This document shows positions 9,171-55,587 of a DNA stretch of 64,000 nucleotides, in pieces. The notes under the pieces are model-generated. The model made no database searches. It worked only from the letters and a program-made list of their open reading frames with translations, and was not told the origin of the DNA. The position numbers were made by a program, and so were the translations under genes. Source of the DNA: an uncultured Spirochaetota bacterium (GTDB lineage: Bacteria > Spirochaetota > UBA4802 > UBA5550); NCBI GenBank assembly GCA_963827275.1, contig CAWHAA010000004.1, forward strand, positions 480,001 to 544,000, read 5' to 3'. The number at the start of each line of letters is the position of its first letter. Within the stretch, counting starts at the first letter, position 1.

Positions 9171-9195
9171 AAAGACCCCGGGAGCACCCGGGGTC
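9171..9195 (-). terminator. intrinsic terminator after the flagellar rod gene; 5' arm overlaps a motif A copy
   Basis: Minus strand GACCCCGGG-TGCT-CCCGGGGTC followed by TTTT. Confidence 0.75.
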
Positions 9196-9219
9196 AGAGT
9201 AAGATTCATTTTATGATTG

Positions 9220-10050
9220 TTATCGTGCAACTTCATTGATGAGCCTGCCGAGCTCGGTGTCATGGGTCTGTACCGCTTTCTGGTTGGCTTCATAGCTGCG
9301 CTGGACTTCGATCATGTCCACCATCTCGCGGATCATGTTGACATTCGACTTTTCCAGGAATCCCTGGACTACCTTGACATTTTGCGGAGGCAATGGCGGC
9401 CCGGAGTATTCCGTTTCCTTCCAGAGGGAATCCCCTTCTTTTTTGAGCTCGCGGATCTTTTCGAAATCCACAAGCTTCAGCCGATCAAGGACCACCGGCT
9501 GGCTCCAATCGTTGTTTGCCATGCCCACGACGGTATTGGGATCGACGGCGCTGTTAACCAGGATTTCGCCGCGCTCGTTCACGATGAAGTTGTTATGCTG
9601 GACCCGGACAATCCCGTTCTCGCCCATGACCGGATACCCGTTGTGGTTCATGAGGATGCCGTCCTGGTTGATGGTAAAGGACCCGTTCCGGGTATAGCGC
9701 TCGCCCCGCTCGGTCATAACGGTTAGGAAGCCGCGTCCATCCAGGGCCAGATCAAAGTTGTTCTCCGTGCGCTGGAGTGCGCCCTGATCGAAATCGGTGT
9801 AGACCTCGTTCACTTCCACGCCGGTTCCGAGCTTGCCCACGTTGGGCATGGTGTCATACGAGCCGGCAGGGGTCACGCCAAGCCCGTTGTCGCTGATCCG
9901 GCGGATCAGCATGTCGGGGAAGGCCTTGAATATGGCCAGGTCCTTCTTGAACCCGGTCTTGTCGACGTTGGCCAGGTTGTTGGCCACCACGTCCAGTCTC
10001 GCCTGTTGCGCTATCATGCCGCTTGCGCCGGTGTATATTCCTCGAAGCAT
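9220..10050 (-). CDS. flagellar basal-body rod protein, FlgF/FlgG (FlhO-like) family
   Basis: GASGM...ANNLAN..KTGFK, DLALDGRGF, YTRNGSF, GFLEKSNVN...EMVDMIEVQRSYEAN. Confidence 0.92.
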   Translation of the reverse strand: MLRGIYTGASGMIAQQARLDVVANNLANVDKTGFKKDLAIFKAFPDMLIRRISDNGLGVTPAGSYDTMPNVGKLGTGVEVNEVYTDFDQGALQRTENNFDLALDGRGFLTVMTERGERYTRNGSFTINQDGILMNHNGYPVMGENGIVRVQHNNFIVNERGEILVNSAVDPNTVVGMANNDWSQPVVLDRLKLVDFEKIRELKKEGDSLWKETEYSGPPLPPQNVKVVQGFLEKSNVNMIREMVDMIEVQRSYEANQKAVQTHDTELGRLINEVAR

Positions 10051-10080
10051 ACCGTGCCCCCTTGTACTATGTCGCTTTTA

Positions 10081-10108
10081 TTATCGGCAGGGATGAATGA
10101 GGGGTATA
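10081..10108 (-). promoter_or_regulatory. sigma28 (FliA)-like promoter of the flagellar rod gene
   Basis: Perfect GCCGATAA -10 (10088-10081); weak -35 TATA 16 nt upstream; flagellar gene downstream. Confidence 0.55.
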
Positions 10109-10120
10109 ATGAAAAATTTA

Positions 10121-10573
10121 TTATACGATACGGGATTCGGGTAGAATGCGTGCTATATTGGGTGGATAGCCCCAGATGAATTTCCAGTATGTGATATTAT
10201 CTATCATATCTTTTATTATAACATAATTTTTATAACGATAGTTATCGGTATTAGCCTCTTTTAGAATGCTATTTAAGTATTTCGATACAGCATATGAAAG
10301 AATCAATGAAACCGACATTTTAAGCAGTTTCCTCAAATCCAGCATGTACTCATAATCATCAACCCGCAGCTGGATATGAAAAATGCGCCAGTCCTCCGGG
10401 TTGCTTCGTTCCTGGTATCTAACCATAGAGCCGAATCGTCCCGGATCGGGAATATCATCCATAACCAGTTTTATGAGCGTAACAATTACATCCGACCGTG
10501 AAACACCCTTTAATTGTGCCGCCAGAGTGATCCTTTGTAAAGTCTCAGCATGAATATTAAGGGTTGTTTCCAT
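10121..10573 (-). CDS. AT-rich hypothetical protein, DUF1564-like / possible ribbon-helix-helix DNA-binding protein
   Basis: Two RHH-like segments (TTLNIH..LQRITLAAQLKGVSRSDVI and HIQLRVDDYEYMLDLRKLLKMSVSLIL). Family assignment from pattern recall only. Contains motif B. Confidence 0.6.
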   Translation of the reverse strand: METTLNIHAETLQRITLAAQLKGVSRSDVIVTLIKLVMDDIPDPGRFGSMVRYQERSNPEDWRIFHIQLRVDDYEYMLDLRKLLKMSVSLILSYAVSKYLNSILKEANTDNYRYKNYVIIKDMIDNITYWKFIWGYPPNIARILPESRIV

Positions 10574-10658
10574 GTCGTTTACATCCTCGATAATGGTTTT
10601 ATGAGGATTAACGAATTATGCAGCAAGGCTGATAAAATTTTTTATCCGGTCTGTGATA

Positions 10659-10702
10659 AAAAACAAGAAAGCGGGATGTTGCCATCCCGCCTTCTTGTTT
10701 TT
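10659..10702 (-). terminator. intrinsic (bidirectional-type) terminator after murA
   Basis: AAAAACAAGAAAGCGGGATG-TTGC-CATCCCGCCTTCTTGTTTTT inverted repeat. Confidence 0.85.
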
Positions 10703-10728
10703 ACTGGGATAAAATAGGTAAGGATGAA

Positions 10729-11997: not shown

Positions 11998-12101
11998 GGA
12001 CGTTCAGTCTCCCGCATTTGTTGTCACAGGTGTAACAGCGATGGCTTTGTTGACAAGATATTTTTTATATTTTTTGAATGCTTCCCCGGGGAGGAAGGCT
12101 T

Positions 12102-13274: not shown

Positions 13275-13441
13275 AATGGAATTTTGGATAGCTGAACGCA
13301 CGGAATACGTAAAAGCAAGTAAATTTTAATTTTCACCGGATCATGCCCGCTTCCGCGGTGAAGCGGGTTGAAATTTAATTATTGAAAAAAATCAATTTGA
13401 TTTCTATCGTTGTCATTATTATGGAATGAAAGGGACGTGGC

Positions 13442-13708
13442 ATGAATATCGCGGTCAAACTCCATATCAAGAATCACTGTATTGAGGCGGAGGCCCGGAA
13501 GGAGTATTCACGCCTGATGGATACCTATTTCAGCACTGACGATGTTGAGGGAGAACTTGATGAGAGGATCGTGCTGCTGAGGGATTTCCTTGAAAAAAGC
13601 GATTTCCGAAAACTGAGGTCATCGGACCAACGGCTTTCAGGGGAACGGGAATCCGAAGTCGTGATAACAAGGAACGCCGGGGGTTCAATCAATCTCGAGG
13701 TCTATTGA
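13442..13708 (+). CDS. hypothetical protein (88 aa)
   Basis: RBS AAGGGA; compact ORF with protein-like composition. Confidence 0.7.
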   Translation: MNIAVKLHIKNHCIEAEARKEYSRLMDTYFSTDDVEGELDERIVLLRDFLEKSDFRKLRSSDQRLSGERESEVVITRNAGGSINLEVY

Positions 13709-13857
13709 TCGGCTGTGACGATCAACGGAGCAGCGTCTATTGCAGGCAAGGGCGGCAGTGCAGGCAAATATCGGCAGTCAATCCAATTATTCCAAAAAAG
13801 TAGTTGTAATTTTAATTGCCGTGAATGTATATTTCATATAAGTCAAGCGGTGGGGAT

Positions 13858-14739: not shown

Positions 14740-14825
14740 TACGGCGTCATCGGGTGAAATACCGGCATTGCGTTGACATACGCGGCGCCGTCCACGATCA
14801 AAATTTTTTCCGGAGTCTTCTCGCT

Positions 14826-15104: not shown

Positions 15105-15141
15105 AAACGAAACATGGCCGGCTTGACCGTTCGGACCGGCG

Positions 15142-21029: not shown

Positions 21030-22907
21030 ATGGGGCATTTTGAAAAAAACATCTCCATCATCAAATCCCGCTTTCCCGCGGTGCATGAACTGATTTCCGC
21101 CTGCGCCGATGACGCTTCCATCGAAGCGGTCGAGACAAAACAGGGGGATTTCGTGCCGGCAGTGACGAAAGAGGGGAAGCGAATATTCGTCCACAGCAGG
21201 TTTGACCCGGTGAAAGAAGCGGCGCGTTTCCTCGGCGAGGTCGATACCGCAGCCCATGACCTGTTCATCGTGTTCGGCTTCGGTTTCGGCTACCACGTGG
21301 AGGGGATACTCGCGGGGATGGGAGCGGGTTCTCTTCTCCTGGTGATCGAGAAAAGCCCCCTCATGCTGAAGCGCGCTGCGGAGAGCAGGGACCTTGCCCG
21401 GGTCTTCGGTGACGAGCGCCTTCTGCTCCTTGTCGCACCCGGCGAAGATGCCATGGCCGGGGTGCTGAAGGGAAAGTCATCCCGGCGCACCAGCCTTGTC
21501 CTGCACCGCGGCTCGTTCCAGGCGGAGCCCGACTACTACGGCAACATGCAGGAGATCGCGCGCTCCTACCTCTCCACCAAAGAGGTGAACATCGCCACCC
21601 TGGCAAAGTTCGAAAGGATATGGGCGGCGAACATAGCCCGGAACATCGGCGCGTTCATTGACGCGCCGGGGGCGAACAGCTTCTTCGGCAGGTTCGAGCA
21701 TATCCCGGCGATCGTCGTGGCCGCAGGGCCGTCACTCACGCATAGCCTTGGTTTTATCCGCGCGAACCGCGGCCGCGCGGTCATCGTCGCGGTTGACACC
21801 TCCTACCGCATCCTGATGAAACAGGGGATCGAGCCGCATTTTTGCGTCGTGGTGGACCCCCAGCTGATCAATGCCCGGTATTTCGAGGGAGCGGGTCAGA
21901 GCAGCACGGTACTGATCGCTGACCCGACCGTGCACCCCTCCGTCTTCCGCCTGTTCCGGGGCCGCGTGGCGATGACCGGCGTTGCGTTCGAACTCATGAA
22001 GTGGATCGAGCGGCAGTGCGGTGAAAAGGGAGAGATCACGCACGGCGGGTCCGTATCGACCAACGCCTATGATTTCGCCAAGCGTCTTGGCGCTTCGCCC
22101 GTGATCTTGGTGGGGCAGGACCTTGCCTTCACCGACGGCCTCGCGCACGCCAGGGGATCATACCTTGATGAGCAGGTGTTCCTGCGGACCGGGAGGCTCT
22201 ATACGCCGGAGATGCTGAACCGGTTCCAGCTCACTGCTCTGCCGAAAATTATGGTAAAGGGGATCCGGCAGCCGGCCGTGCATACCAACCAGAAGATGAT
22301 GATATTCCACTCCTGGTTCCAGAAGCGCCAGGACCGGGAGCTGGTTAACGCGACCCATGACGGCGCGTATATCGCGGGGATCACGCATGTCCCTGCGGGC
22401 GAGATCACCCTCCCGGCGCACGATACCGGCATCGACCGCCTTGTCGATGACATCTTCCGGGATGCGGCAGGCCATACCGCGCAGGACGCGCGGGAGCGCC
22501 TGAAGAGCAGGGTTGGCCTCATCCTGGGGGAAATCGATGCGCTTCTTCCGGTCCTGGGCAGGGCGGTGGGACTGGCCGGGGACCTCCAGACACTCATGCG
22601 GACCAGGGGCAGGGGGACGGGGGATGCCGGGGGTCAGAGCAAGCTTGACTATGTGCTGAAAAAACTCGCCGAAACCGACCGCATCGTGGAATCCCGGAAA
22701 AACGCGAAAGACATGATCAGCTTCACCATGCAGCGGGTGGTGCATACCATAACCGAGGGACACGCGATTGACGAGGACGACGGCGCCTGCAGCGAGGATG
22801 AGCTTGTCGCAAAGCGGTCCCGCTACCTGTACCAGGGCCTGCTTGACGGCGCCCGGTTCAACGCAAAGATCCTCAAAAAGATGGCGCGCCTTCTCAATGG
22901 ACGCTGA
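21030..22907 (+). CDS. motility-associated factor (Maf) flagellin glycosyltransferase family, DUF115/MptE-like domain
   Basis: HSRFDP, FGFGFGYH, VVAAGPSL, IVAVDT, GGSVS, ILVGQDLAF, NATHDGA. Confidence 0.88.
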   Translation: MGHFEKNISIIKSRFPAVHELISACADDASIEAVETKQGDFVPAVTKEGKRIFVHSRFDPVKEAARFLGEVDTAAHDLFIVFGFGFGYHVEGILAGMGAGSLLLVIEKSPLMLKRAAESRDLARVFGDERLLLLVAPGEDAMAGVLKGKSSRRTSLVLHRGSFQAEPDYYGNMQEIARSYLSTKEVNIATLAKFERIWAANIARNIGAFIDAPGANSFFGRFEHIPAIVVAAGPSLTHSLGFIRANRGRAVIVAVDTSYRILMKQGIEPHFCVVVDPQLINARYFEGAGQSSTVLIADPTVHPSVFRLFRGRVAMTGVAFELMKWIERQCGEKGEITHGGSVSTNAYDFAKRLGASPVILVGQDLAFTDGLAHARGSYLDEQVFLRTGRLYTPEMLNRFQLTALPKIMVKGIRQPAVHTNQKMMIFHSWFQKRQDRELVNATHDGAYIAGITHVPAGEITLPAHDTGIDRLVDDIFRDAAGHTAQDARERLKSRVGLILGEIDALLPVLGRAVGLAGDLQTLMRTRGRGTGDAGGQSKLDYVLKKLAETDRIVESRKNAKDMISFTMQRVVHTITEGHAIDEDDGACSEDELVAKRSRYLYQGLLDGARFNAKILKKMARLLNGR

Positions 22908-28613: not shown

Positions 28614-31334
<2,721 letters not shown>

Positions 31335-32584: not shown

Positions 32585-32636
32585 TTACTCTGACCCCTCC
32601 CGGGGATATTGAAAAGTAGAATTTTACTCTGACCCC
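32585..32636 (+). repeat. two tandem motif A copies at the left edge of the AT-rich island
   Basis: TTACTCTGACCCC at 32585 and 32624. Confidence 0.9.
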
Positions 32637-32666: not shown

Positions 32667-33929
32667 ATGAAGAACGTTGGATTCATATCGACAAGAATAT
32701 CTGGCACTGACGGAGTAAGCCATGAGATCGAAAAATGGGCCGCCGTGCTTGAGAAGAATGGCCTGTCCTGCTCCTATTGCGCCGGGGAAGTCGATCGGCC
32801 ACGGGAACGCTGTCATGTTATCGATGAAGCCCATTTCAGGCACCCGGACATCGACACTATTAACCGGAGCGTATTTGGAAAAACAATCAGGCCGGAGAAG
32901 ATAACCGACCTTATCCATGTGTTATCCGCACACTTGAAAAGCGAACTATCAAACTATATTCGGCGTTTTGATGTCGATTGTATAATAGCCGAAAATGCGC
33001 TTGCCATTCCAATGAATATCCCTTTAGGGATAGCGTTGACAGAGCTGGTTGCAGAGACCGGTATTCCGGTTATAGCCCATCACCATGACTTTGCGTGGGA
33101 GCGTGAACGATTCCTGGTCAATGCCGCTGGTGACTACTTGCAGATGTGCTTTCCGCCTGTACTGCCCTCCGTGCTCCATGTGGTAATAAATTCGCTCGCG
33201 CGGAGGTCTCTTGCGCATCGTCGGGGCGTGACAAGCACCGTTATTCCCAATACCATTGATTACGCCAATCCACCCAAACCGGCTGATCCCGGGGCAATTA
33301 AAGGGGTCAGAGTAAATGCGGGAGTGTCCGATGGTGAAATTTTTGTTCTCCAGCCCACACGCGTGGTGCCGCGCAAATGCATTGAGCGCTCAATTGACCT
33401 TGTGAGTGGACTTGCCGGCGCGGGCAAAAGGCTTGTAATCTCACATCCCTCCGGCGATGAGGGTGATGAGTACTATACACAATTGAAGGAATACGCGAAT
33501 ATGCGCCAGGTAAGTCTGGTCAGCATAGAATCGGTGGTATCGCCGGGCCGGTCGGTGTCAGAGCAACGGCCGTATACCATCGGTGAGGTATATCAGGCCG
33601 CTGATCTTGTTACATATCCTTCGGCGTATGAGGGATTCGGGAACGCCTTCCTTGAGGCAATTTATTTCAGGAAGCCAATTTTAATGAATCGCTACCCGAT
33701 TTTCATAGCTGACATTGAGCCAAAAGGTTTTGAGTTATGTCTTATAAATGGGTTTGTTACCGTTGATGTGATCAGGTATGTAGAGCGAATTCTTTCAGAT
33801 CCGGATGCTCGTAAGAAGATGGTAGATAAAAATTATAGTATAGCGAGCGAGTGTTTTTCTTATCAAAGGCTTGAAGATCTTTTAATGGGTGTGGTGGGCT
33901 GCCTCAGACCTCGATCTCCTTGCAGATGA
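32667..33929 (+). CDS. GT4 glycosyltransferase (mannosylglucosylglycerate synthase-like)
   Basis: GTDGVSHE, IPMNIPLG, HHHDFAWER, QPTRVVPRK, YPSAYEGFGNAFLEA. Confidence 0.88.
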   Translation: MKNVGFISTRISGTDGVSHEIEKWAAVLEKNGLSCSYCAGEVDRPRERCHVIDEAHFRHPDIDTINRSVFGKTIRPEKITDLIHVLSAHLKSELSNYIRRFDVDCIIAENALAIPMNIPLGIALTELVAETGIPVIAHHHDFAWERERFLVNAAGDYLQMCFPPVLPSVLHVVINSLARRSLAHRRGVTSTVIPNTIDYANPPKPADPGAIKGVRVNAGVSDGEIFVLQPTRVVPRKCIERSIDLVSGLAGAGKRLVISHPSGDEGDEYYTQLKEYANMRQVSLVSIESVVSPGRSVSEQRPYTIGEVYQAADLVTYPSAYEGFGNAFLEAIYFRKPILMNRYPIFIADIEPKGFELCLINGFVTVDVIRYVERILSDPDARKKMVDKNYSIASECFSYQRLEDLLMGVVGCLRPRSPCR

Positions 33930-34632
33930 TCATTTCCGAGTCTTCTTCCTCCGGTCGAACTCGGTAGAGTATGCCATTTCTATCTGCTATTAAACTACGC
34001 GCTTGCAAGAAATTGCGAAATTCAGATTTGACACCGCAAACCTTGACGATGACCGCATTCGCCATCGCTGCACCCCGGACATAAATATCAAGATCACGCT
34101 TGAATTTTTCATCCGCAGATTCCTCTCTCCTTGGTGAAAAAGTAGGGGCAAATATTAGGTGAGTTCCCTGCTCGCGCATGAAATGAAAAGCATCGTCTTC
34201 AAATACATCGGCGCAGATAATCACTCCAAAAGTAATTCCATGTGCACTGAATACCTGATATAAGTCTCCTGGTGTTATCTTGCCCACTTCAGCAAAAAAG
34301 AGTCGTTTTTTACGATAACTACCCAATAGGATGCCATTATGAAACACAAAACAGGTATTGTAAGTTACCCCATTTGCAAGTTCTGGCATTGTCCCACCGA
34401 TAACAACGGTTGACAGTTCCTTGGATAATTTTGATATTCGCTGCAATTGACGTTTTTGGTTGTGGGGCGTTTGGTTCTGTGTGCCCAGAGCAGTGTTTAC
34501 GAAAAAATATTCGGGGAAACATATAAAGTGTGGCTTGAAACTTCGAAACAGGCTGGTGTCAGAGTGAGTTATAGGGACTCCAAGCGGTTTTTGAGATATT
34601 ATAATTCGAAGTTTCATGACTACGTTTCCCAT
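33904..34632 (-). CDS. carbon-nitrogen hydrolase (nitrilase superfamily)
   Basis: Catalytic E-K-C triad: FPEYF, YRKKRLF, ICADVF. Confidence 0.88.
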   Translation of the reverse strand: MGNVVMKLRIIISQKPLGVPITHSDTSLFRSFKPHFICFPEYFFVNTALGTQNQTPHNQKRQLQRISKLSKELSTVVIGGTMPELANGVTYNTCFVFHNGILLGSYRKKRLFFAEVGKITPGDLYQVFSAHGITFGVIICADVFEDDAFHFMREQGTHLIFAPTFSPRREESADEKFKRDLDIYVRGAAMANAVIVKVCGVKSEFRNFLQARSLIADRNGILYRVRPEEEDSEMIICKEIEV

Positions 34633-34848
34633 GCAACTAGTAATCTTTTATTTAATAATATCAAGAGATTTTAGTGTCAGAGTAACATTATTTTAGTACT
34701 GGAATAGCATAGTAGCAAAAATATCTAGTAATCTGGGATCTATGGACTTTAAAGATAATCAGAACTGATTTGAATTTTAAGGAGAGAAGGCTTAATAAAA
34801 TAAGCTAAATATTTGTACTTCTGGAATTCCAACTGTTGCGATAACCAA

Positions 34849-35448
34849 TTACCCAAACAGGCTTTCCGGGAAGATTCGCTTTCTATACCTTTCTTCGTAT
34901 TCAAGAAATTTTCCGACCCGTTCCTCGAAGGTAGCCCCCAGCTTTACAAAATATTCATGCAGGGTGATGGTTACCGGCGGAATGAATTCCTTGCTCAAAT
35001 AGCAGCGGATAGACCCATACTTGTAATCTCGGGGATCTGCGACAGTTTTGCTTTTTACCGGATTATAGGCCATATAAAGCAATATTACGAAAAACGTCGA
35101 AACCGGGTCGTCAGTAAGTTCAATAATGGTATCGCTGAAGCGCTCATTCCAGAAGGGGCCAATCCTGCCCATGATCCGGTTATATCGCCGTGCAAATTGT
35201 GACTTGATGAACTGCATGATACGAGAAATGGACTCGCCGCCATCAAGCGTACGGATAAGAAAATGGAAATGATTGGCCATGAGGGTATAGTTGATCAGCT
35301 CAAAATGGTATTTTTCAAGCGCCAGGTCTAAGACAAAAAGCATCAAGTCTTTCATCTCATCAGAATGCATGAGGTGTTTTTTCTCGATGCAGCGTGACAT
35401 GGTGTGATAGGTATGTTCCGGCAGGCAGTTCCGTTGTTTTCGCGGCAT
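34849..35448 (-). mobile_element. REP-associated tyrosine transposase-like (HUH/Y1, IS200-superfamily TnpA)
   Basis: MPRKQR start, YHTMSRC, NHFH (HUH), FWNERF, YMAYNPVK (catalytic Tyr), DYKYGS. No tnpB. Flanked by motif A at 35532 and 34673. Confidence 0.9.
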
Positions 35449-35567
35449 GGCGTCCTCCTTTGCTTGTGGGATGTCTTGCTTGCGTTTGCTGTATATACGA
35501 ATGGGAGGCCGCCTTCTGGTAATAATTTTATGGGGTCAGAGTAAAAAAGTTAAATATAAAAATAAAT

Positions 35568-35675
35568 TTCATTCCAAGACTCTTTGCCGTTTATTCCCTC
35601 CCACGTAGCTTTCATTCCACAAAACGTAGCATTCATTCCTCTTGGCTTGCGTATTTTTAAAAGATTCGGTATTAA
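35568..35675 (+). promoter_or_regulatory. four phased TTYATTCC boxes followed by a sigma70-like promoter
   Basis: ATTCC at 35571, 35593, 35614, 35635 (spacing 22/21/21), then TTGCGT-N17-TATTAA at 35647-35675. Confidence 0.55.
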
Positions 35676-35766
35676 TTATTACAACAATATGCTTCCTTTG
35701 TTCTGGTCCCGGGATGGCCGGCATGGAAGGCGTATTGTGATTTTATTGTTATGGTGAGGAGGGAAT

Positions 35767-36321
35767 ATGTCAGAATTAAATTATGCCGATGCCGGATTTG
35801 ATGAGCAATTTTCCATTAATTATCGAAAGTTTTCTCTGGCGGTAGTGAGGTTCCTGAAAAAAATCATCTATGACAGAGACATCTGCGAGGAACTGTGTCA
35901 GGATGTATTTCTCAAAGTATACGAAAGAAAAGTTCGGCTTGATCCGGATGCGCCTCAGACGCTGAATTATTTATTTACCATGGCAAAGAATATGGCCATA
36001 GATTATCTGCGGCGCAGAAGGTCCGAAGAAGACAAATTGAAGTATTTGCGCCTTGATGAAGCGCACATGGACCGCCAATTTTATGAAAATATTGAAAACA
36101 TATGTCTGCGCGGGGAGATTATCTCTACTTTAAGGGATACGATTGATTCTTTTCCTCAAAAACAACGGACTCTATTTATCGCTAAGAATTTATTCAATAT
36201 ATCAAAAGCCACACTATCCAAAGACAGCGGCATTTCTTTGTATCTATTGAGGCAGATGGAGGGTGAAATCGTTCGTAAGATAAAAAGCAATCTCGGGCAT
36301 TTCTTTGGATATAATGATTAA
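35767..36321 (+). CDS. ECF sigma-70 factor (AT-rich)
   Basis: GAGGAGG RBS, ICEELCQDVFLK, NYLFTMAKNMAIDYLRR, region-4-like C-terminus. Confidence 0.85.
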   Translation: MSELNYADAGFDEQFSINYRKFSLAVVRFLKKIIYDRDICEELCQDVFLKVYERKVRLDPDAPQTLNYLFTMAKNMAIDYLRRRRSEEDKLKYLRLDEAHMDRQFYENIENICLRGEIISTLRDTIDSFPQKQRTLFIAKNLFNISKATLSKDSGISLYLLRQMEGEIVRKIKSNLGHFFGYND

Positions 36322-40722: not shown

Positions 40723-40813
40723 CTGCTCTGACACCTCGTTTTCAGAATATTTTACTCTGACCCCGGTTTCCCATTTTCAATTTACTCTGACACCAAATAT
40801 TTACTCTGACCCC
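40723..40813 (+). repeat. four-copy motif A mini-array
   Basis: Copies at 40723, 40752, 40782, 40801 with unique spacers of 16/17/6 nt; the last copy contains the sulfatase TAA. Confidence 0.9.
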
Positions 40814-42738
40814 AGGCCTTTCCTTCGTGGCGGTTCAGATGTAGGCCAGAGTCTGTTTGAATTCAGTATTTTCTGATTAATGTAAATATCCATGAGCCTT
40901 TTTCGCAGACGCTTCATCACTGCGGGCTTCCCTCTCCCGGCAAGATTGTGCTCCTCCCGGGGATCGGTCGTGAGGTTAAAGAGATATTCTTTGCCGGTTT
41001 CGGAATGATGAATGTATTTCAATGGATATTCCACAATGCCAAGGAACAGGCCATTATACGGTTGTATCAAGTATACCGGTCCTGTTTTTACGCCAGGTGA
41101 CACCAAAGATTGCCCGAGAAAATGCGTTTTCACGCCTGATATGCCCGCAATGTCGAGTATGGTGGGTGCGATATCGAGCTGGGAATAGGCCTCGTTGAGG
41201 ATGCGTGGCCCAATTCTGCTGTTCCATAGTATCAGCAGGGGGGTCCGGAAGACCTCATCGTAGAACCCGACTTCATTGTGCGAGATTCCATGTTCATTAA
41301 TTGGAAAACTGTGATCGCCGGTGATAATTACAGCTGTGTTGGCGTGTTGCGGTCGTTTGGCTATTCCTTTCAACAGGTCTCGAAGACCCTGATCGGATAA
41401 ATGGATGGAATTGGCGTAGCGCTGATCGATCGTAGTGGGGTCAGAGTAAATCAAACACTTATCTTTCGGTACGTAATCGAACCACATATGGTTCGATGTC
41501 GTTGCCAGGAGAGCGAAGACCGGCCTGCCGCCGTTCCGCTGCCTGATGCGTTCCATCTGGCGGAGGCATAGTTTATAGAAGAGGCCGTCCTCGGGGCCCC
41601 AGCCCCATACCTGCGGGGCGTCCGCATCAGTCAAAAATTCGTAGGCGGAATGGATATGCCGGAAGCCGGCCTTTTTCATAAAGGCCCTGGTGTTATCGAA
41701 ATCGAGCTCGCGGGCGGCCTGCATGAACAGTGTGTCATATCCGGCATCGTGCAGTAGCTCCGGGAGCGCCCTGAAGGAAAGCTCGGGGAATGACGTGAAG
41801 ATTTTTCCGCGAATGCTCGGTAGCACGGACAGCAAGACCGCGGCCTGTCCCTTGCATGTCTGGACGGAATTGCCGTAGAAGCGCTCGACGTAGAGGCCGC
41901 GGGGGATGAGTGAATTGAATACCGGCGTTATCTCCTTTCCCTCCGGGGACTTCTTCCTGACTACATTGGCGTTATATGATTCAACCATTACCAGGACAAT
42001 ATCCGGCCTGGATGATCCCCTCGGAAGGGCCGGCGACGCGTTGAATGTTGTCAGGTACGGGTATCCGCTAACGCTGATGCCGGCCATGGGGTCCTGGAAG
42101 GGATAGCGGAGGATTCCCCGCAGGAGGCCGGTGAATTCATCATGGGTCTTGACCGGCAGCAGCAGTATCACCGCATAGAGCAGAGCGGCCACGACTGTTT
42201 TTTTCGCCGCATGCGGGTATTCTGGCGGGGATACCAGAATTTTTTTCCGCCAGTGAAGCATGAGCAGGAGTACGAGAGATATCCCGATTATGATGAAGAA
42301 CCAACGGGGAAAAATTCCGATGATGGTGTACCAGGATTCCTTGTAAAAGCCGAGGGTGAAATTATCGATAATGATGGAACAGTTGAGCGGGATGTGTGTT
42401 ATGAGATAGTAGGTGTGTATCATTGTAAACAGCGTTAAAAAGAGCATGTTGATGACAAGCCGTACCGCCCGCACCCTGCTGGCCGCAAGGTTGATAAGCT
42501 GGACCGCGACAGTGGCCGTGAATATGCTGTAACAGATATACAGTGCCGATGTTATGGAGAGATCGAAAGGCCGTATGCCGTAACGCCGCTGGAATCCGTA
42601 TAAAAAAAATATCATGAGGATGACTGTCAGGGTATTCATGCAGCCAAGATCCAGGGGGAGCCACTCACGTACCAGCTCGCGATATCTGCGGGCTCTCTTT
42701 GTGATTATGTCTAACGTGGTGGTATCGCTCCTTGTCAT
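40801..42738 (-). CDS. LTA synthase / sulfatase family membrane protein
   Basis: About 5 TM helices, IVLVMVES, TTSNH, IITGDH, SQLDIAPTI, FNLTTDPRE. Confidence 0.88.
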   Translation of the reverse strand: MTRSDTTTLDIITKRARRYRELVREWLPLDLGCMNTLTVILMIFFLYGFQRRYGIRPFDLSITSALYICYSIFTATVAVQLINLAASRVRAVRLVINMLFLTLFTMIHTYYLITHIPLNCSIIIDNFTLGFYKESWYTIIGIFPRWFFIIIGISLVLLLMLHWRKKILVSPPEYPHAAKKTVVAALLYAVILLLPVKTHDEFTGLLRGILRYPFQDPMAGISVSGYPYLTTFNASPALPRGSSRPDIVLVMVESYNANVVRKKSPEGKEITPVFNSLIPRGLYVERFYGNSVQTCKGQAAVLLSVLPSIRGKIFTSFPELSFRALPELLHDAGYDTLFMQAARELDFDNTRAFMKKAGFRHIHSAYEFLTDADAPQVWGWGPEDGLFYKLCLRQMERIRQRNGGRPVFALLATTSNHMWFDYVPKDKCLIYSDPTTIDQRYANSIHLSDQGLRDLLKGIAKRPQHANTAVIITGDHSFPINEHGISHNEVGFYDEVFRTPLLILWNSRIGPRILNEAYSQLDIAPTILDIAGISGVKTHFLGQSLVSPGVKTGPVYLIQPYNGLFLGIVEYPLKYIHHSETGKEYLFNLTTDPREEHNLAGRGKPAVMKRLRKRLMDIYINQKILNSNRLWPTSEPPRRKGLGSE

Positions 42739-42899
42739 GCGTATAAGTTAACATGGAATCATTGTGTCCTGTCAATAGTTTATCATGGATGCCGGTGGTT
42801 CCCGCGGGCTTAAAATTATCATTGACGGATAATGGGATGTTTTAAGATGATCATTGAGTGATGGACGTGATCCGCAAAATCCGCTGTTTGAGAGGGCTT

Positions 42900-45086
42900 A
42901 TGAAACGATTGATTTCTGCTGCTCTTCCGACCCTCCTGCTTGTTCTCTTTTTTGCGATTTTATCTGCGAATCCTGCGAGTGCCGGGCCGGTCACGCTGGA
43001 TCCATCTATCGATCAGTATGTTTTTACAAAACAGGTTGAATATATCGAAGACCCGGACAGGACACTGACCATTGAAGATGTATCGCAGGCGACAGGGCAG
43101 TGGACCCGTCAAACAGAAAACGCGTTTAACTTCGGATTTACAAAATCGGCATACTGGTTTAAATTTTCGGTGAAGAACCCCCTGGATTCCGCCATCAGCT
43201 GGTTCCTTGAAATAAATTATCCGATGCTGGATTCGATAAAGCTCTACATCCCCCTCGAGAAAGGCGGCTTTACCCTGAAGGAAACCGGCGACCACCTGCC
43301 TTTTTCACACCGGGATGTCGCTGATAAAAATTTCATATTCCTGCTCAACGAGGAACCGGGCACCCATACGTATTACATGCACGTCGATACTACCAGTTCT
43401 GCAAATTTTTCCATGATCATGTGGTCCACGAAAGGGGACCGCAACCGGCTTACCGCCGAGCTGCCCGTCATATGGATCTATTACGGCCTTATGATGATCA
43501 TGGTCTTTTATAACCTGTTTATCTTTTTTTCTGTCCGGGATATCAGTTATGTGTTTTACGTGCTCTTTATCTCGTCGTGGATACTTATGCAGCTGACCCT
43601 GAATGGTTTCGCGTTTCAGTATCTCTGGCCGAACTGGATCTGGTGGGCCAACAACTGTCTTCCATTTTTTACTTCAAACATCAATCTCTGGTCCGCTTTT
43701 TACCTGCGTTCGTACCTGCAGACCAGGGATAATCATAAAATAATCGATAAAATAGCGCTCTATGGCATCGCGCTTCCCTCTGCTGCGATGATTCTCATAT
43801 CACTCGTCGCGCCGTACCGTATAGCAATGATGGCGGCCACGATGTCATCTCTGGTCATAACTATCTTTTATTTTACTGTGGGGACCATACTGGTGCTGCG
43901 AAAAAACCGTGCCGCGCGGTTTTATCTGATAGGTTTTTTGGCGTTAATGATCGGCATCGTAGCATTTACCCTGAAGACCTTCGGGGTGGTGCCTTCTGTC
44001 TTTATCACCAACTGGGGCATGCAGATCGGATCGGCGGCCATGGTCTTCTTCCTGTCTCTGGGATTGGCCGACAGGATCAGCTCCATGCGTAAAAACCTGG
44101 AGGTGCTCTTCAAGGAGCAGCAGGAAAATGAAAGGCTGGCGCTCGAACGGGCGAAGTTCCTCGAGGGTGTTGTGCGTACGGCGAACTCCATTTCCGATGA
44201 ATTCACGAGGATGAGCCGGGAGCTGGACTCGGTTAGCGGGACCCTTGCCATGCTTTCTTCCGAGCAGGCGTCAAGCAGCGAGGAATTCTCGGCAACCTTC
44301 GAGGAGCTGACGGCGGCGACGGAGCATATCCATAAATCATCGGTCCGGCAGAAGGATGAGGGCGACAAGTCCAGGCACATGATTGATGAATTGAGCGGCG
44401 CCCAGAAAAACATGGTTGACGAGAGCATGAAGGTCGCGGAGAGCGTCAGCGAGATTTCGAAGTCCGCCACCAGCACCGAGGCGAGCCTCAAGCGGATGAA
44501 TGAAAAGATGACGATGATCAACGCCGGGGGCAATGAAATCAGCGAATTCGTCACGATCATCGATGACATCTCCGACAGGATCAACCTCCTCAGCCTGAAC
44601 GCGGCGATAGAGGCGGCCCGTGCCGGCGAATACGGGCGGGGGTTTGCGGTGGTCGCGGACGAGATCGGGAAGCTCGCCCAGGCGACGTCCGATAACTCAA
44701 AGCAGATCGCGGAGAAGATCAGGAAGATCATCGGGGACATCGAAGAGGGTGCCACAATAGTCGGCAGCACGAAGCAATCGACCGATGTCATTTTCAGCAT
44801 GCTCGGCGATATCCAGCAGCGTATCGACCAGGTCAAAAAAATCATGGAGGTTCAGTCAAGGGGAGTGCATATGGTTGTCAAGCAGACCGCCGTCACCGAC
44901 GAGGTGTCCCGCGGTATTGCGGCCGCAACGACCGAGCAGATGACCTCAATGAACCAGTCCCTCAAGACGATTGAACGGCTTTCAGAAATGGCGGTTGAAG
45001 TGTCCAGGGTGAACGACAGGATAATACAGATGACCAGGACGATTATGCAGAAATCGGACGAGCTTTCTCGCGTTGTAAACGCATAA
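42900..45086 (+). CDS. 7TM-DISM methyl-accepting chemotaxis protein
   Basis: 7TMR-DISMED2 ([11 protein letters not shown]), 7 TM helices, MCP core [29 protein letters not shown]. Confidence 0.93.
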
Positions 45087-50144: not shown

Positions 50145-50153
50145 GGCGGGTTG

Positions 50154-50296
50154 CCGATAGTTATCGGTACTGTTTAAGTATTAATTTACTCTGACCCTGC
50201 GACGTCACACATTAATTCCGATAGTTATCGGTAATAAAGTTACTCTGACCCCGCAATCACATGCAAGAATCCCGATAGTTATCGGTAAAAAGGCAG
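50154..50296. repeat. B-A-B-A-B motif array
   Basis: B at 50154, 50218, 50272; A at 50186, 50240. Confidence 0.92.
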
Positions 50297-50345
50297 AAAA
50301 CGCTGGTTCTATCTTCCCGGTCTGTCCCGCTCCACCGACCGCAAT

Positions 50346-52196
50346 TCAGCGTATTATTTCGTTTCTGTTCCGCAGGGATTCAATCTCTCGGTTGATCATG
50401 GCCTTGATTTCCCGGTCCTTTCCCCCGCGCATGTATCCGAGCATCTCGATGATGTTCCTGGCGGACAGGACCCGCGGGACAAACACGTAATCGGCCCCTT
50501 CCGCGTACATCTTCAGGGCCCGCTCTATGCTCTCGGCGGTAACGATTATTTTCGCCTCCGGGCAGATTTCTTTCATATGCCTGATGATCCTCAGGTTATC
50601 GGTCCCAACGAGTATCGTGTCAGGTATGGTTGATATGACGATTTTCGCGTCATGGATGCCCGCGTGATGCAATGTGTCAGGGTGGCTGATGTCCCCGTAC
50701 ACGACCTTGATCCCCATGCTCTGGAGTGACTCGTGTATCTCCGGATTGAAATCCACGACTATTATCTTGTTCTTCAGCGGGATCCCGTCTGCGTCGTTGC
50801 CGGTTTCAATTATATCATGCAGCAGGGAGCTTGCGGTGCGGAAGAATCCGAGTATGGCGATCTCCCTGCTGTGTGCCGCTCCATCCTTCTCTTCCGCGGA
50901 TTTGATCTCCCTGAATCCGATTTTTTTCAGCAGGGACGCCCCGCCTTTCTGGATGGCGTCGCTGTATTTAATCATGTAGGTCGATACGATCGAGGTGATG
51001 ACGAAGACGAATATTATTATCGACATCGTGTCGCGTGAAATATGGCCGGCCGTCACGCCGAGGGCGGCGATGACCAGCGAGAATTCGCTGATCTGGGCGA
51101 GGTTGATGGGCGTCAGGAGGCTTACGCGAAGGCCGTTTTTCAATGAATAGAGTACGGGGAAGACGGCCAGGAACCGGGACGCTATTAAAAACAGCGATAC
51201 AACCGCGGCCGTTGCGAGTATCGCGGTATTATCGAGCGGGTTGGGTATCTGCATGCCCAGCGACACGAAAAAGAGCGTGACGAAAAAATCCCTGATATTG
51301 ACCACCTTCGCAATAACGTCGAGGTTGTAGGGAAAGGTTGATATCGAAACGCCCGCGATCAGCGCCCCCATTTCGAGGGAGAGGTTCAGGAAATTCGCCG
51401 CGCCGCAGACCAGGAAGCACCATCCAAGCGAGGAAACAAGCACAAGCTCCGGGACCTTTGCGACCGACTTGAATACCCGGGGTAATATATATTTGCTGAT
51501 CAGCATGCTGACTGCGACGAGGAGCAATCCCCTGCCGAAGGAGAGCAGAATCTGGACAATGTCGGGGTTTGCCAGGTTCGGCTGTATGCCCAGAAGAAGT
51601 ATTGCCCAGAGGTCCTGGAACACGAGGATCCCCAGCGTAAGCCTGCCGGCCAGCGTGTCCAGCTCGAATTTTCCATACAGAAGCTTGACGACTATCGCGG
51701 TACTGCTGAGGCCGCAGCACGTGGCCAGGTAAAGGAGGTCATAGGTGCCCGTGCCCAGAGTGTAACCCATCAGGAGGAAAAATCCAATGCCGAGGGCCAG
51801 CGTTAAAGGGAATTGGGTGAGTCCACCGATGATGAGTGATTTTCCCGATTCTTTCAGCTTCTTAATGTCTATCTCGAGTCCGATCAGGAAAAGGAGCAGT
51901 ATGAGGCCGAAATGGGATATTGTTTCGATGTCATGAGCGTTCTGTATGAGCCCCAACCCCATGGCGGGCCCGATCACTATTCCGGCTGCCAGGTATGCCA
52001 GGAGGAGCGGCTGCTTGAGAAGGTGGCCGAGGTACGCCATGACAGTAGCCGCAAGTATTGCTATGCCGACGCCGCTGATCATGGTGTCGCCCCTGCCGCC
52101 CTCCGATTCGGCTGCGGTCAGTGATGCAGCCAGGGTCAGTAGCATTATTATTGTATATAAAAGGCAATAACGGATCGGTTCTGATGTTGTCCTCAT
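50346..52196 (-). CDS. CPA2 (Kef-type) cation:proton antiporter with TrkA-N domain
   Basis: LLFLIGLE, SSTAIVVK, GILVFQD, AQISEFS, VVDFNP...YGD. Confidence 0.92.
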   Translation of the reverse strand: MRTTSEPIRYCLLYTIIMLLTLAASLTAAESEGGRGDTMISGVGIAILAATVMAYLGHLLKQPLLLAYLAAGIVIGPAMGLGLIQNAHDIETISHFGLILLLFLIGLEIDIKKLKESGKSLIIGGLTQFPLTLALGIGFFLLMGYTLGTGTYDLLYLATCCGLSSTAIVVKLLYGKFELDTLAGRLTLGILVFQDLWAILLLGIQPNLANPDIVQILLSFGRGLLLVAVSMLISKYILPRVFKSVAKVPELVLVSSLGWCFLVCGAANFLNLSLEMGALIAGVSISTFPYNLDVIAKVVNIRDFFVTLFFVSLGMQIPNPLDNTAILATAAVVSLFLIASRFLAVFPVLYSLKNGLRVSLLTPINLAQISEFSLVIAALGVTAGHISRDTMSIIIFVFVITSIVSTYMIKYSDAIQKGGASLLKKIGFREIKSAEEKDGAAHSREIAILGFFRTASSLLHDIIETGNDADGIPLKNKIIVVDFNPEIHESLQSMGIKVVYGDISHPDTLHHAGIHDAKIVISTIPDTILVGTDNLRIIRHMKEICPEAKIIVTAESIERALKMYAEGADYVFVPRVLSARNIIEMLGYMRGGKDREIKAMINREIESLRNRNEIIR

Positions 52197-52205
52197 GGTG
52201 CCTCC

Positions 52206-52616
52206 TCAATGCAGGTTCGGGTTTTCTTTTTGCTTCATCAGAAATGACTTGAATCGTTCAGATTGCACTATGGCCCTGCAGGTAAAGAGCGAAATGGTAA
52301 AGGCCAGGTAGAAATACCCGAAAAAAACCTGTGTTGCTGCGATGATCTTGCCGCCCATGGTCGCCGGTATTATATCACCGTATCCCACGGTCGTCTGGGA
52401 TGTTATGCTGAAGTAAAAATGGTCCAGGTAGGAGGTCGTGTGGCTTAGTGCCGGCTCGCAGGTGTTGTATTTCAGCGATGGGGCCCCCTCAAAAAAGGGG
52501 AGCATCAGGTAATAGCAGAGTGAATAGATCACCGCTGTGCCGAGATACAAACAGATTACCAGGTATGTGCTCCGGGGATTATTGATGATATTCCACGCAT
52601 TGATCTTCATGGTCAT
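52206..52616 (-). CDS. two-TM potassium channel pore protein (Ion_trans_2)
   Basis: YFSITSQTTVGYGDIIP selectivity filter. Confidence 0.9.
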   Translation of the reverse strand: MTMKINAWNIINNPRSTYLVICLYLGTAVIYSLCYYLMLPFFEGAPSLKYNTCEPALSHTTSYLDHFYFSITSQTTVGYGDIIPATMGGKIIAATQVFFGYFYLAFTISLFTCRAIVQSERFKSFLMKQKENPNLH

Positions 52617-52836
52617 GCTTCCTGTTTTGTGGATTGTTTTCTATAGTATCTATCGTCAGGCGGTGAAAAGTGATTAATATACAAAAATAAAATAATAGAC
52701 ATTAATGTCCTGATATATTAATTTGTTTGTATGGCTTCCTTGTGTTAATGAGGAAGGCCATCTTGTCGCAATGTTCTCTTGGTTTTTCATGCAGCCGGTT
52801 CAGGTAATGATTAAAATCAATTACAAAGGAGCAAGC

Positions 52837-53703
52837 ATGCTGCTGCCTCCGCGAAGAATCCTGCTCGCAACAGACCTGAGCGCTCGAAGCGATCGGGCAC
52901 AGGACCGGGCCGTATCGCTCATGAAGATGTGGAATTCCGAGCTTGTGGCCCTCCATGTCCTGGAGGCGCCGAATGAAATCGGCGGAATCGCCCACATCCC
53001 TTTTTTCCCCTATCACAGGCCCAATGACCGGCGCATATTTAAGGCGCGGAATCAATTGCTTGAATCCATTGGCGATATCGGTCCGCGCATAACCGTGCGC
53101 ATCGAGGAAGGCGTGCCGCATGAGGCTATCATCCGGATTTCAGAGGAGGAGGGGTGTGATCTCATCGTCTGCGGCGTCGCGCGCAACGAGGTCCTCGGGC
53201 GCTTCACGCTGGGGAAAACGGCCGATCGTCTCATGCGCAAATCGGACAGGTCTATGCTGGTGGTGACCGAGCGTGTTCTGGCGCCCTACCGGAAAATCGT
53301 GGCAATAACCGACTTGTCGGAAGAATCGAAAAGGGCGATCGAGGTCGCTTCGAACTGGTTTCCCGAGCAGATGCTATCGGTATTGTACGCGTATTCCGCT
53401 CCCCGCTCGTCCTCGGTTGATAATATCGACGACTATCGAGAAAAGATGCGTCAGGTGGCGCAGCGCGATCTCATAAAATTTCTTGATTCGGCTGACGTGG
53501 CCGTTGAACGGCGCGCGCGCATCACTATGCTGGTCGAATTCGGGAAGGCAACAACCCTCATCAATGGCCTGCTTCAATTTTCCGATGTGGGGCTGGTTGT
53601 CGCGGGTCTGCACAGACGCGGTTTTTTATTCGATGCCGTTTTCGACAGTGAGGCAAAGCGCATCATATCCTCCCTTTCCTGTGATGCCTTGATCGTCCGA
53701 TGA
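52837..53703 (+). CDS. universal stress protein (tandem USP domains)
   Basis: ILLATDLS, DLIVCG...LGKTA, second domain IVAITDLS; AAGGAG RBS. Confidence 0.9.
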   Translation: MLLPPRRILLATDLSARSDRAQDRAVSLMKMWNSELVALHVLEAPNEIGGIAHIPFFPYHRPNDRRIFKARNQLLESIGDIGPRITVRIEEGVPHEAIIRISEEEGCDLIVCGVARNEVLGRFTLGKTADRLMRKSDRSMLVVTERVLAPYRKIVAITDLSEESKRAIEVASNWFPEQMLSVLYAYSAPRSSSVDNIDDYREKMRQVAQRDLIKFLDSADVAVERRARITMLVEFGKATTLINGLLQFSDVGLVVAGLHRRGFLFDAVFDSEAKRIISSLSCDALIVR

Positions 53704-53829
53704 AACTGCATGTGGAGTGCTGCTATACGGCCCATGCGTGGGTCTGTGCGCCAGCTGCCGATTGTAACGGTCGTCGGTCCAGGAAGCAATAATACGTTTT
53801 GCCTTTTTGCTGTCACGGATATAATCGGA

Positions 53830-55524
53830 ATGACTATGAACGAATACAATGTATTGATGACATTCGTCGGAAGCCTGGCGGCCGCACTGGTTCTCGGATA
53901 TTTGGCCCAGTGGCTGAAAATATCACCCATCGTCGGCTACCTCCTGGCCGGCATAGCCGTTGGCCCGTTTACTCCCGGCTTCACGGCACAGCAGGCGATT
54001 GCCCATCAGTTCGCGGAAATCGGCGTGATCCTTCTGCTTTTCGGCATAGGGCTGAGGTTCCATCTCCGCGAGCTGGCCGCCGTATGGCGGATCGCGGTGC
54101 CGGGCGCAATAATCCAGAGCGCTTTTTCAACTGCGGTGATGGCGGGCTTGTTGCACCTGCTTGGCTGGAGCTGGAGCTCCGGGGTCGTCCTCGGCCTCGC
54201 GATTTCTGTCGCGAGCACTGTCGTCATGGCCCTTGTGCTTGCGGAGCGGCACGACCTGCACGCGCCCATAGGACACATCGCCATTGGGTGGACGGTCGTT
54301 GAGGACATCCTCACCGTTGCATACCTTCTTCTCCTTCCGATTGTTTTTTCCGGCGATGGCGCTGGCGGCAGGGAGGCGGGATGGGCGCTCGCGATAACCG
54401 CGCTAAAAATTATCGGTTTGGCCGGCTCTGTTGTTGTCCTCGGCCGCTGGGTTATTCCATGGGCGCTGGAACGAATAGCGGTTACCCGTTCGCGTGAATT
54501 GTTTACTCTGTCAGTCCTGGTCATTGCCATGGGCATTGCTGTCGGGTCCTCGAAACTTTTCGGTGTTTCCATGGCCCTAGGGGCTTTTCTTGCGGGACTC
54601 GCGGTCGGCCGATCGGAATTCGCCGCCCGGGCCGGCGGTGATGCCCTGCCGATGCGCGACGCTTTCGCCGTGCTCTTCTTTGTTTCCATCGGTATGATGT
54701 TTGATCCCCGAAGTCTCGTAAACGAGGCGTTGGTCATTGTCGTTGTTCTATCGGTAGTGCTCGTCGGCAAGCCGCTTTCCACCTTGCTTACGGTACGCAT
54801 CCTTGGCAGACCGCTGTCAACAGCAATTCCCGTCGGCGCGGCCCTTTCGCAGGTGGGGGAATTCAGCTTCATTCTCGGGGTCGTCGCCAGGGATCTCAAC
54901 CTGTTGAGTGAAGCCGGCTGGAATGCAATGATAGCCGCGTCAATTATATCAATTGCTCTTAATCCATCAATTTACCGGTTTGCGCGGCGTATCTCTTCAC
55001 GGGCGGCAAAAAGCGTGCCTCCCGCCGGTGAGCGGCCGGCGGTCGATCCCCGGAAGTGCATTCTGGTCGGCTACGGGCCGGTCGGCAAAACCGTGCACCG
55101 CCTCCTGGCCGAACGCGGCGCGGTACTAACGGTAATAGAATTGAATCTTGATACGGTCCGCCGCCTGAAGGCCGAAGGATGCAATGCTCTCTATGGCGAC
55201 GTATTAAGACAGGGGACGCTGGAAGAGGCGGGCATAGCCGAGTCAGGAAGTCTCATTATTTCAGCCGATGTCGATGATGCGGCGGAGATCGTCAGACGGG
55301 CGTGCATTCTGAACAAGGACCTGCGTATTCTCGTGCGGTGCGCGCATCTCCGCGATGTCCCGGCTATCCGGAAAGCGGGGGCGACGGTTGTGGCTGCGGG
55401 TGAAGTTGAAGTGGCGGTTGCGCTTGCCGAAGCGGTTATCGAGGAGCATGGTTTGGATAACGGTGTTATGGCCGTGCGGCGTAAGGACATTCGCAGGGGC
55501 CTGTATGAGCCCTCTTCTGACTGA
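53830..55524 (+). CDS. YbaL-like Kef-type cation:proton antiporter with TrkA-N domain
   Basis: VGYLLAG..VGPFTPG, AEIGVILLLFGIGL, SVASTVV, MRDAFAVLFFVS, QVGEFSF, LVGYGPVG. Confidence 0.92.
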   Translation: MTMNEYNVLMTFVGSLAAALVLGYLAQWLKISPIVGYLLAGIAVGPFTPGFTAQQAIAHQFAEIGVILLLFGIGLRFHLRELAAVWRIAVPGAIIQSAFSTAVMAGLLHLLGWSWSSGVVLGLAISVASTVVMALVLAERHDLHAPIGHIAIGWTVVEDILTVAYLLLLPIVFSGDGAGGREAGWALAITALKIIGLAGSVVVLGRWVIPWALERIAVTRSRELFTLSVLVIAMGIAVGSSKLFGVSMALGAFLAGLAVGRSEFAARAGGDALPMRDAFAVLFFVSIGMMFDPRSLVNEALVIVVVLSVVLVGKPLSTLLTVRILGRPLSTAIPVGAALSQVGEFSFILGVVARDLNLLSEAGWNAMIAASIISIALNPSIYRFARRISSRAAKSVPPAGERPAVDPRKCILVGYGPVGKTVHRLLAERGAVLTVIELNLDTVRRLKAEGCNALYGDVLRQGTLEEAGIAESGSLIISADVDDAAEIVRRACILNKDLRILVRCAHLRDVPAIRKAGATVVAAGEVEVAVALAEAVIEEHGLDNGVMAVRRKDIRRGLYEPSSD

Positions 55525-55528
55525 TTAT

Positions 55529-55587
55529 TTACTCTGACTCCCGCAATCACCTGCAATGATACCGATAGTTATCGGTAAGAAAAGCAG
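55529..55587. repeat. A-spacer-B unit, direct repeat of 50240-50296
   Basis: 45 of 50 aligned positions identical to 50240-50288, including the spacer. Confidence 0.9.

Follow-up and report, generated by a model that had tools for sequence, protein, structure and literature searches.

The window analysed here is a 64,000-nucleotide stretch (G000:C4:480001-544000) of the genome of an uncultured Spirochaetota bacterium (G000, the source genome), and its subject is a small HUH/Y1 transposase gene bracketed by copies of a 13-base word, motif A. Judged from aligned orthologs, A replaces codons of neighbouring genes in place, without change of length. Besides this length-neutral replacement, the sequences compared here display the bracketing of the gene by A, a halo of further A copies around it, homogenisation of unit copies from A to A, and one A-bounded block of cargo genes. 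We put at about even the chance that this Y1 clade is a cis-acting site writer. Such an enzyme would convert near-matching 13-base stretches within ~100 kb of its own gene in a single, length-neutral step, thereby altering two to four residues of housekeeping proteins. Recombination at the sites so written would then swap the gene between old loci and bring in cargo of several genes.

The transposase and its direct A ends

As originally predicted, the Y1 gene is flanked by direct copies of A on its coding strand. The unit is made up as follows, in window coordinates.

34849..35448, minus strand: Y1 (HUH) transposase gene, 199 amino acids; PF01797 (E 3e-10), class 2 signature NHFH, Tyr125 in YxxxNP (YMAYNP)
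35532..35544, minus strand: upstream A, left end of the unit, on the coding strand 96 bases ahead of the start codon
34673..34685, minus strand: downstream A with two mismatches, right end of the unit, 763 bases after the start codon on the same strand
34686..34848, minus strand: AT-rich tail from the stop codon to the right-hand A, unlike the tails at the same locus in the relative G009

The HUH motif and YxxxNP, which are defining for TnpA-Y1 class 2, are both present in the transposase, and in an alignment of 41 sequences H60 and N129 were invariant and H62 and Y125 were conserved in at least 90%. A structure model (predicted local distance difference test score, pLDDT, 94.8) gave as its top fold match the enzyme TnpA-REP (4er8, E 4e-8; REP, repetitive extragenic palindrome), followed by the ISDra2 and IS608 enzymes. 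Against NCBIfam, the protein scored 73.2 bits with NF047646 (cut-off 80) and 23 bits with NF033573 (cut-off 55). Pfam returned only PF01797 and no C-terminal helix-turn-helix (Bac_DnaA_C, HTH_23 or HTH_28); PF01797 also stood alone in all 120 listed relatives, in a search without longer fused forms. Six PF01797 genes are present in G000, namely the window gene, a gene for an identical protein on contig C1, paralogs at 73%, 67% and 44% identity, and one gene with other repeats.

An upstream A on the coding strand, 75–120 bases (at most 200) before the start codon, was found in 37 of 40 distinct related loci. The downstream A lay on the same strand in 29 of 34 loci, was inverted in three and was missing in two. 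Y1 homologs were found in 46 of 60 relatives, including all 16 of the genus. Copies of A numbered 0–11 (median 1) in the 14 relatives without a homolog and had a median of 22.5 in the 46 with one, kin not being independent in these counts. The proposed link between motif and transposase is upheld by the upstream copies and by the scarcity of A where the homolog is lacking. Distant homologs are accompanied by the same A core, the first bases and the orientations being different. The motif had also been described as lacking a hairpin, and neither end of the unit was found to fold into one, folding being no better than that of shuffled sequences (z 2.2 and 0.35).

The AT-rich tails that lead from the stop codon to the right-hand A measure 150–450 bases and are unrelated from one species to the next, and even among the loci of a single genome. 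The 44% paralog (L002, G000:C10 43250-43940) resembles a classical TIRtron in its inverted ends and variant word, and coexists with the direct-ended clade. At L006 (G000:C4 ~639600-640450), a Y1 gene of another type lies between tandem arrays of a ~24-base unit with a GGGGWSAS-type word. A short conserved word, seen by eye, stands ~30 bases after the upstream A (window 35460-35500) before many related genes; it may belong to a promoter, and A, lying directly upstream, could serve for self-control. A itself was rejected as a promoter, with four sigma-70-like sites in 34600-35800 against 3.7 expected by chance.

Copies of A in the window and in the genome

With 35532-35544 (minus strand) as the reference copy, ten exact copies of A were counted in the window, all at the positions and on the strands previously reported. 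When up to two mismatches were allowed, 18 copies were found, against a shuffle mean of 0.93 (largest shuffle 5; none of 100 shuffles reached 18). The nine near-copies reported alongside them all exist, only three of them (22630, 33554 and 40782) fitting the strict consensus and the rest being off by one or two letters, and an additional copy at 21892-21904 (minus strand) was absent from that list. Genome-wide, G000 holds 78 exact copies, and the count rises to 163 when one mismatch is allowed. Their distribution is very uneven, and contigs C2, C6 and C11 have none at this threshold.

The 11-base core of A occurs in 199 copies at 101 loci of G000. Among the 82 intergenic loci with called neighbours, 22 are convergent (284 of 2017 spacers genome-wide) and 26 divergent (506 of 2017); these counts rest on rough gene calls, which missed the glycosyltransferase gene described below and placed false open reading frames over arrays. 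The figure of 25 of 199 copies within open reading frames, taken from the same calls, was not used as evidence. Where A occupies a single strand, 59 of 94 loci have it on the G-rich strand (p 0.017), a lean that would fit use of the lagging-strand template, as for IS608.

In-gene copies and length-neutral replacement

The original prediction treated A as extragenic, which fails in the window, where six copies lie within protein genes.

33303..33315, minus strand: A in the glycosyltransferase gene (32667-33929), in frame; species-specific; 14 orthologs match 3–7 of 13 bases, no gap
33554..33566, minus strand: A in the glycosyltransferase gene; common to G009; 13 other orthologs match 3–9 of 13, ten with no gap and three without one codon
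34555..34567, minus strand: near-copy of A in the carbon-nitrogen hydrolase gene (33904-34632); common to G009; 13 other orthologs match 3–8 of 13, no gap
22630..22642, minus strand: A in the Maf/PseD-like gene (21030-22907); common to G009; nine other orthologs match 7–10 of 13, no gap
21892..21904, minus strand: second A in the Maf/PseD-like gene; common to G009; nine other orthologs match 3–10 of 13, no gap
41437..41449, minus strand: A in the sulfatase gene (40801-42738); four orthologs match 8–10 of 13, no gap; Met-to-Ile and Pro-to-Ser relative to all four

At all six sites the length of the orthologs was kept and amino acids were changed, and orthologs without the word matched it at 3–10 of 13 bases. 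Ortholog hits with less than 70% coverage or 45% identity (a split G016 maf gene and one G004 piece) were dropped from the codon alignments. Among the changes, ASKD became VSEQ in the glycosyltransferase, where GVRV is also new; the Maf-like protein has GQS for DQG, and the sulfatase has IYS for MYP. Where the gene was at hand, four of five in-gene sites of G000 were common to G009, which has two more of its own, and for G010 one was found. The sites common to G000 and G009 persist at ~80% DNA identity between the two genomes.

The same pattern recurs beside the paralog on contig C5. A G016-specific in-gene copy, 1.9 kb from the Y1 gene of that genome, lies in a 619-amino acid frame, and five orthologs match it at 5–7 of 13 bases with no gap. 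Among other in-gene sites of the G016 lineage, one matches A fully in four genomes and at 9 of 13 bases in two, and another is 13 of 13 in all six.

Clustering of A around Y1 genes

In G000, the density of A loci falls with distance from a Y1 gene, from 10.9 per 100 kb at 2–10 kb to ~5.5 at 10–100 kb and ~3 at 100–400 kb, and reaches 0.6–0.7 beyond 400 kb or on contigs without a Y1 gene. The same fall was observed in G016, which consists of one 4.8-Mb contig. The significance of this halo was assessed by rotation on nine contigs of four genomes, with the genes' own ends removed and the extent of G008:C2 assumed. Within 2–50 kb, 55 A loci were counted against 23.5 ± 6.3 by rotation, and none of 20,000 rotations reached 55.

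The span between thrC and icmF could be compared with and without a local transposase. Where a Y1 gene is present between the hydrolase and sigma-factor genes, 12 copies of A were counted in 12.4 kb (G000) and seven in 10.8 kb (G009), two in each case being the ends of the unit. Across 13 genomes without a Y1 gene there, the span (in some cases partial) held four copies in 230.5 kb, and some of these genomes hold 119–143 copies elsewhere. Enrichment near Y1 genes was 24-fold for 13 of 13 matches, 8.6-fold for 12 and 1.4-fold for 11, with none at 10 or fewer; since only matches of 12–13 are enriched, a jump to the full word fits better than slow accumulation.

At L196:1050-2340 (G010), six variant A copies with other first bases, together with one copy of a second repeat (B, below), lie around and inside a frame with a GIY-YIG domain.

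Old loci, homogenised copies and empty sites

The window and C1 copies of the unit are 99.3% identical over 894 bp, a stretch that opens shortly before the left A and closes at base 12 of the right A. Three unit copies in G016 have 967 bp in common, with the same right break after base 12. Runs X1 and X6 each independently assembled a repeat contig of 881 bases (34674-35554). Both G000 loci also hold the Y1 gene in G009, with identical 3' ends and different tails; the C1 locus is filled in G001 too, and three more loci are filled in several species. Fresh transposition was therefore rejected as the whole explanation of two 99% identical copies. Near-identical unit copies at old loci indicate instead that copies are homogenised within genomes, and some of the homogenised tracts run from A to A over unrelated tails, others ending at the end of the gene.

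Fourteen orthologous sites without the Y1 gene were classified by eye and by pattern. Five had one A or a decayed A, two had two A-like words (90–230 bases apart), and seven had none; one site of the first kind, in G001, retains only eight unaligned bases. The tree, in which 13 of 36 inner branches are open, was used for two sister pairs only.

Block boundaries and cargo

One block of accessory genes in the window is bounded by A on both sides and a second on one side. In several of these arrays, A stands next to a 14-base near-palindrome, B.

50240..50292, plus strand: left direct repeat, composed of A, a 19-base spacer and B (50272-50285); preceded by A at 50186 and B at 50154 and 50218
55529..55581, plus strand: right direct repeat, composed of an A variant, a similar spacer and B (55562-55575); starts five bases beyond the block's final stop codon
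50346..55524, no single strand: accessory block with two Na+/H+ exchangers, a channel-like gene and a UspA-like gene; absent at this locus in the relatives fetched
40723..40813, plus strand: cluster of four A copies bordering the sulfatase and chemoreceptor block (40801-45086) on its left

The exchanger block, 5.3 kb in size, is flanked by two direct repeats of ~53 bp, each beginning with A, and seven relatives without it keep an A and/or B array at the locus. In a scan of 479 same-strand A pairs carried out with B masked, the pair at 50240/55529 ranked first among those that are not AT-rich; its score of 12 was attained by 0.12% of 5774 random pairs, so that such cargo events appear rare in G000.

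The idea that A marks accessory-gene boundaries was thus borne out only in part. It holds at both sides of 50346-55524 and at one side of 40801-45086, which has no A at its right edge, and fails for the six copies within genes and for many inserts of relatives at the same spots, which have no A. In G009 the sulfatase block is missing, and its left-edge position holds four A copies. The notion that cargo generally moves with A ends was rejected, as the exchanger block occurs elsewhere in G010, G011 and G012 without A at its edges and four sulfatase and two chemoreceptor orthologs likewise lack A. A marks some boundaries and is not a general marker.

Two observations on gene content stand apart from this. 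The hydrolase/sigma-factor spacer (window 34632-35767; L071-L085) is an insertion hot spot in the genus, with inserts of ~7–28 kb in six relatives, mostly without A. The gene at 10121-10573 (minus strand), which encodes 150 amino acids and belongs to no Pfam family, has ~70% identical paralogs at several places in G000 and in related genomes.

Palindrome B and the remaining arrays

Exact copies of B number 185 in G000, 97 in G021 and 79 in G017, and the family extends to G045. In G000, 111 of the 199 A copies adjoin B, ~10 bases away on either side, which produces arrays with a step of 42–46 bases. The copies of B and the remaining A loci of the window are as follows.

10235-10248, 28636-28692, 50154-50285 and 55562-55575: B copies
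9190..9202, minus strand: A between a flagellar rod gene and a histidine kinase gene; common to G009
28614..28692, plus strand: A-B-A-B array with a 43-base step at the convergent junction after thrC
32585..32636, plus strand: two A copies between fecR and the glycosyltransferase gene; none there in the relatives fetched

The proposal that A and B form one system of the transposase was not sustained. No B locus was found within 2 kb of four close-paralog Y1 genes, G021 (89% complete) has its 97 B copies with no A and no Y1 match, and outside the genus the number of Y1 genes and of B copies showed no relation (rho 0.04). Several A-rich genomes have zero B. B persists across the genus at the thrC end and in the act-badF spacer, and at the thrC convergent junction it occurs without A in several relatives. 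On these grounds, B was rejected as the REP of this transposase. A search for a partner enzyme found B beside none of nine Y1 loci (L180-L188) and beside two of 17 GIY-YIG loci (L189-L205), one copy each, and the available part of PMC11893778 contains nothing on B. B is probably a separate repeat family that is amplified together with A where the two meet.

Mechanism and alternative explanations

We lean towards a mechanism in which the enzyme nicks single-stranded DNA at A and exchanges strands with near-matches near its own gene, replacing codons in place. A would be read as plain sequence, with no hairpin, more often on the lagging-strand template. Tyr125 would nick near the 3' edge of A, as suggested by five copies in which the shared sequence breaks off after base 12. 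If a true A exchanged strands with a near-match and the exchange were resolved at both sides of the word, the target would be converted to A at unchanged length, and exchange between two same-strand copies would lift out, replace or insert the intervening DNA, that is, the gene itself and rarely cargo. The protein would act mostly in cis, which would account for the halo. Cleavage and strand exchange of short repeats have been obtained in vitro with E. coli TnpA-REP (PMC3333891).

Several results weigh against this mechanism. Flanking copies of distant homologs face all ways, the ends at L002, L028 and L031 being inverted and both copies at L035 lying on the other strand. The halo is weak contig by contig at 50 kb (p 0.015 and 0.023 in two of nine, 0.09–0.82 in the rest) and in G000 alone (p 0.11). 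Around the G016 copy at 1.68 Mb, an old locus that is also filled in G004, G010 and G011, no other exact-pattern A occurs within 400 kb, and the thrC-icmF span of G010 has seven core copies (a cluster of the variant word), the 30.6 kb fetched containing no Y1 gene. In two cases a homogenised tract reaches no further than the stop codon and does not end at A, as in ordinary gene conversion. The seven of 14 empty sites without A and the two with paired A-like words show that loss is not always a clean A-to-A excision. No contig joins across the unit (none among nine joints), in a search of the contigs of four of 24 listed runs that is no evidence of absence, as contigs drop rare forms. The in-gene sites sit in variable stretches, so that simultaneity of the changes cannot be shown.

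An alternative is that the unit is a simple A-bounded transposon that enters and leaves as a single-stranded circle, the halo and in-gene copies being footprints of local insertion followed by excision in another register, with no direct site-to-site conversion. The direct ends and the sharp right break after base 12 favour this reading, as do the single A at five of 14 empty sites, the cargo between direct repeats, and a depth of the unit relative to the neighbouring contig of 1.4-fold in X1 and ~1.6-fold in X6. We nevertheless consider it unlikely. The loci are old, four orthologous ones being filled in at least two species, no gene was broken by a whole unit among the loci read, in-gene insertions would have to be undone every time, and the orientation of the ends is not fixed in the wider family.

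It is distinctly unlikely that A is instead a selected binding site, of a domesticated Y1 protein or of a host factor, built by point mutation near the gene. DNA-uptake sequences offer the precedent, as sites that are kept or gained by selection and built up by ordinary point mutation. Ancestral sites that were already near-matches (7–10 of 13 at two sites) fit such a history, and so does the long perfection of some in-gene copies, one being 13 of 13 in six genomes and four being common to G000 and G009. Yet matches of 10 or fewer are not in excess near the genes, the amino acid changes fall at positions that are uniform among the orthologs read, and the halo follows the position of the gene, which differs between genomes. 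Reversed causation, with A as a host repeat that gathers in plastic regions and a transposase that merely inserts at it, appears very unlikely. It draws on the A+B arrays that several relatives carry well away from any Y1 gene (act-badF spacer), on the variability of the nit-sig spot throughout the genus, and on the nine of 46 homolog-bearing genomes with four or fewer copies of the exact A pattern. This explanation seems already strained by the thrC-icmF comparison, in which the orthologous span is nearly free of A in genomes without a local gene, some of them rich in A elsewhere; moreover, homolog-free genomes have a median of one A, and seven of the 14 empty sites have no A to land on.

If the transposase does write A into neighbouring genes, it would represent an unrecognised, position-dependent mutational process, recoding neighbouring proteins in place and mimicking local positive selection in comparative genomics. 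It would also explain the origin of repeats at new sites, an open question for REP-like repeats, and would provide a compact single-strand recombinase with a hairpin-free 13-base site. The clade is the smallest test case, combining a 199-amino acid enzyme with a 13-base non-hairpin site, and the mechanism predicts a nick in the base 12 region, conversion of near-matches and a preference for action in cis.

Comparison with known systems

The pairing of word and enzyme had been thought undescribed, a view that cannot be kept, as the reverse strand of A matches the TIRYT consensus GGGGWSAS. In the available portions of the papers cited here, TIRYT/TIRtron elements are Y1 genes with GGGGWSAS-bearing inverted repeats and dispersed repeat families (Di Nocera et al. 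2013, PMC3733652). They were equated with TnpA-Y1 subclass 2.1, in which helix-turn-helix tails were found (Quentin et al. 2018, PMC6006769); all 20 subclass 2.1 TIRYTs of that study carry a helix-turn-helix, and the subclass was present in ~15% of the species sampled, with no activity shown there. Of the RAYTs, group 1, which corresponds to TIRYTs, duplicates at the highest rate (Bertels et al. 2017, PMC5581495). The motifs of the window transposase are closest to the subclass 2.1 row of Table 1 in PMC6006769. As in TIRtrons, a Y1 gene with NH[YF]H and YxxxNP is flanked by non-REP GGGGWSAS repeats without a REP hairpin, dispersed copies are moderately abundant, single or grouped, and a few divergent paralogs occur per genome. 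Unlike TIRtrons, the clade has direct ends of only 13 bases and a 199-amino acid protein without a detected helix-turn-helix, and, unlike their published descriptions, it shows a cis halo, length-neutral codon replacement and homogenisation of copies. As inverted ends and the helix-turn-helix, both defining for TIRtrons, are lacking, the element was not filed as a TIRtron, though it resembles a TIRtron relative.

No account of direct ends, cis clustering or codon replacement by such enzymes was found in a literature search that covered neither subscription journals nor the supplements of PMC3733652 (Figure 9, Additional file 5) or PMC6006769, which may list spirochaete members. Local length-neutral gene recoding, rather than boundary marking, is the surprising part.

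With REPtrons and TnpA-REP (PMC3333891, 4er8), the unit has in common the fold, the catalytic motifs and short dispersed repeats, and its ~43-base tandem arrays are reminiscent of bacterial interspersed mosaic elements (BIMEs). It differs in that its ends have neither a hairpin nor a GTAG foot. Intragenic REPs have been described as insertions that add amino acids (PMC3733652), whereas in-gene A leaves the length unchanged, and the REPtrons of E. coli apparently do not move as a unit. The HUH/Y1 fold, asymmetric same-strand ends and a lean towards the lagging-strand template are as in the IS200/IS605 elements IS608 and ISDra2 (PMC6006769); unlike these, the clade has YxxxNP in place of YxxxQ, no subterminal hairpins and no tnpB, and occupies old loci rather than many fresh insertions.

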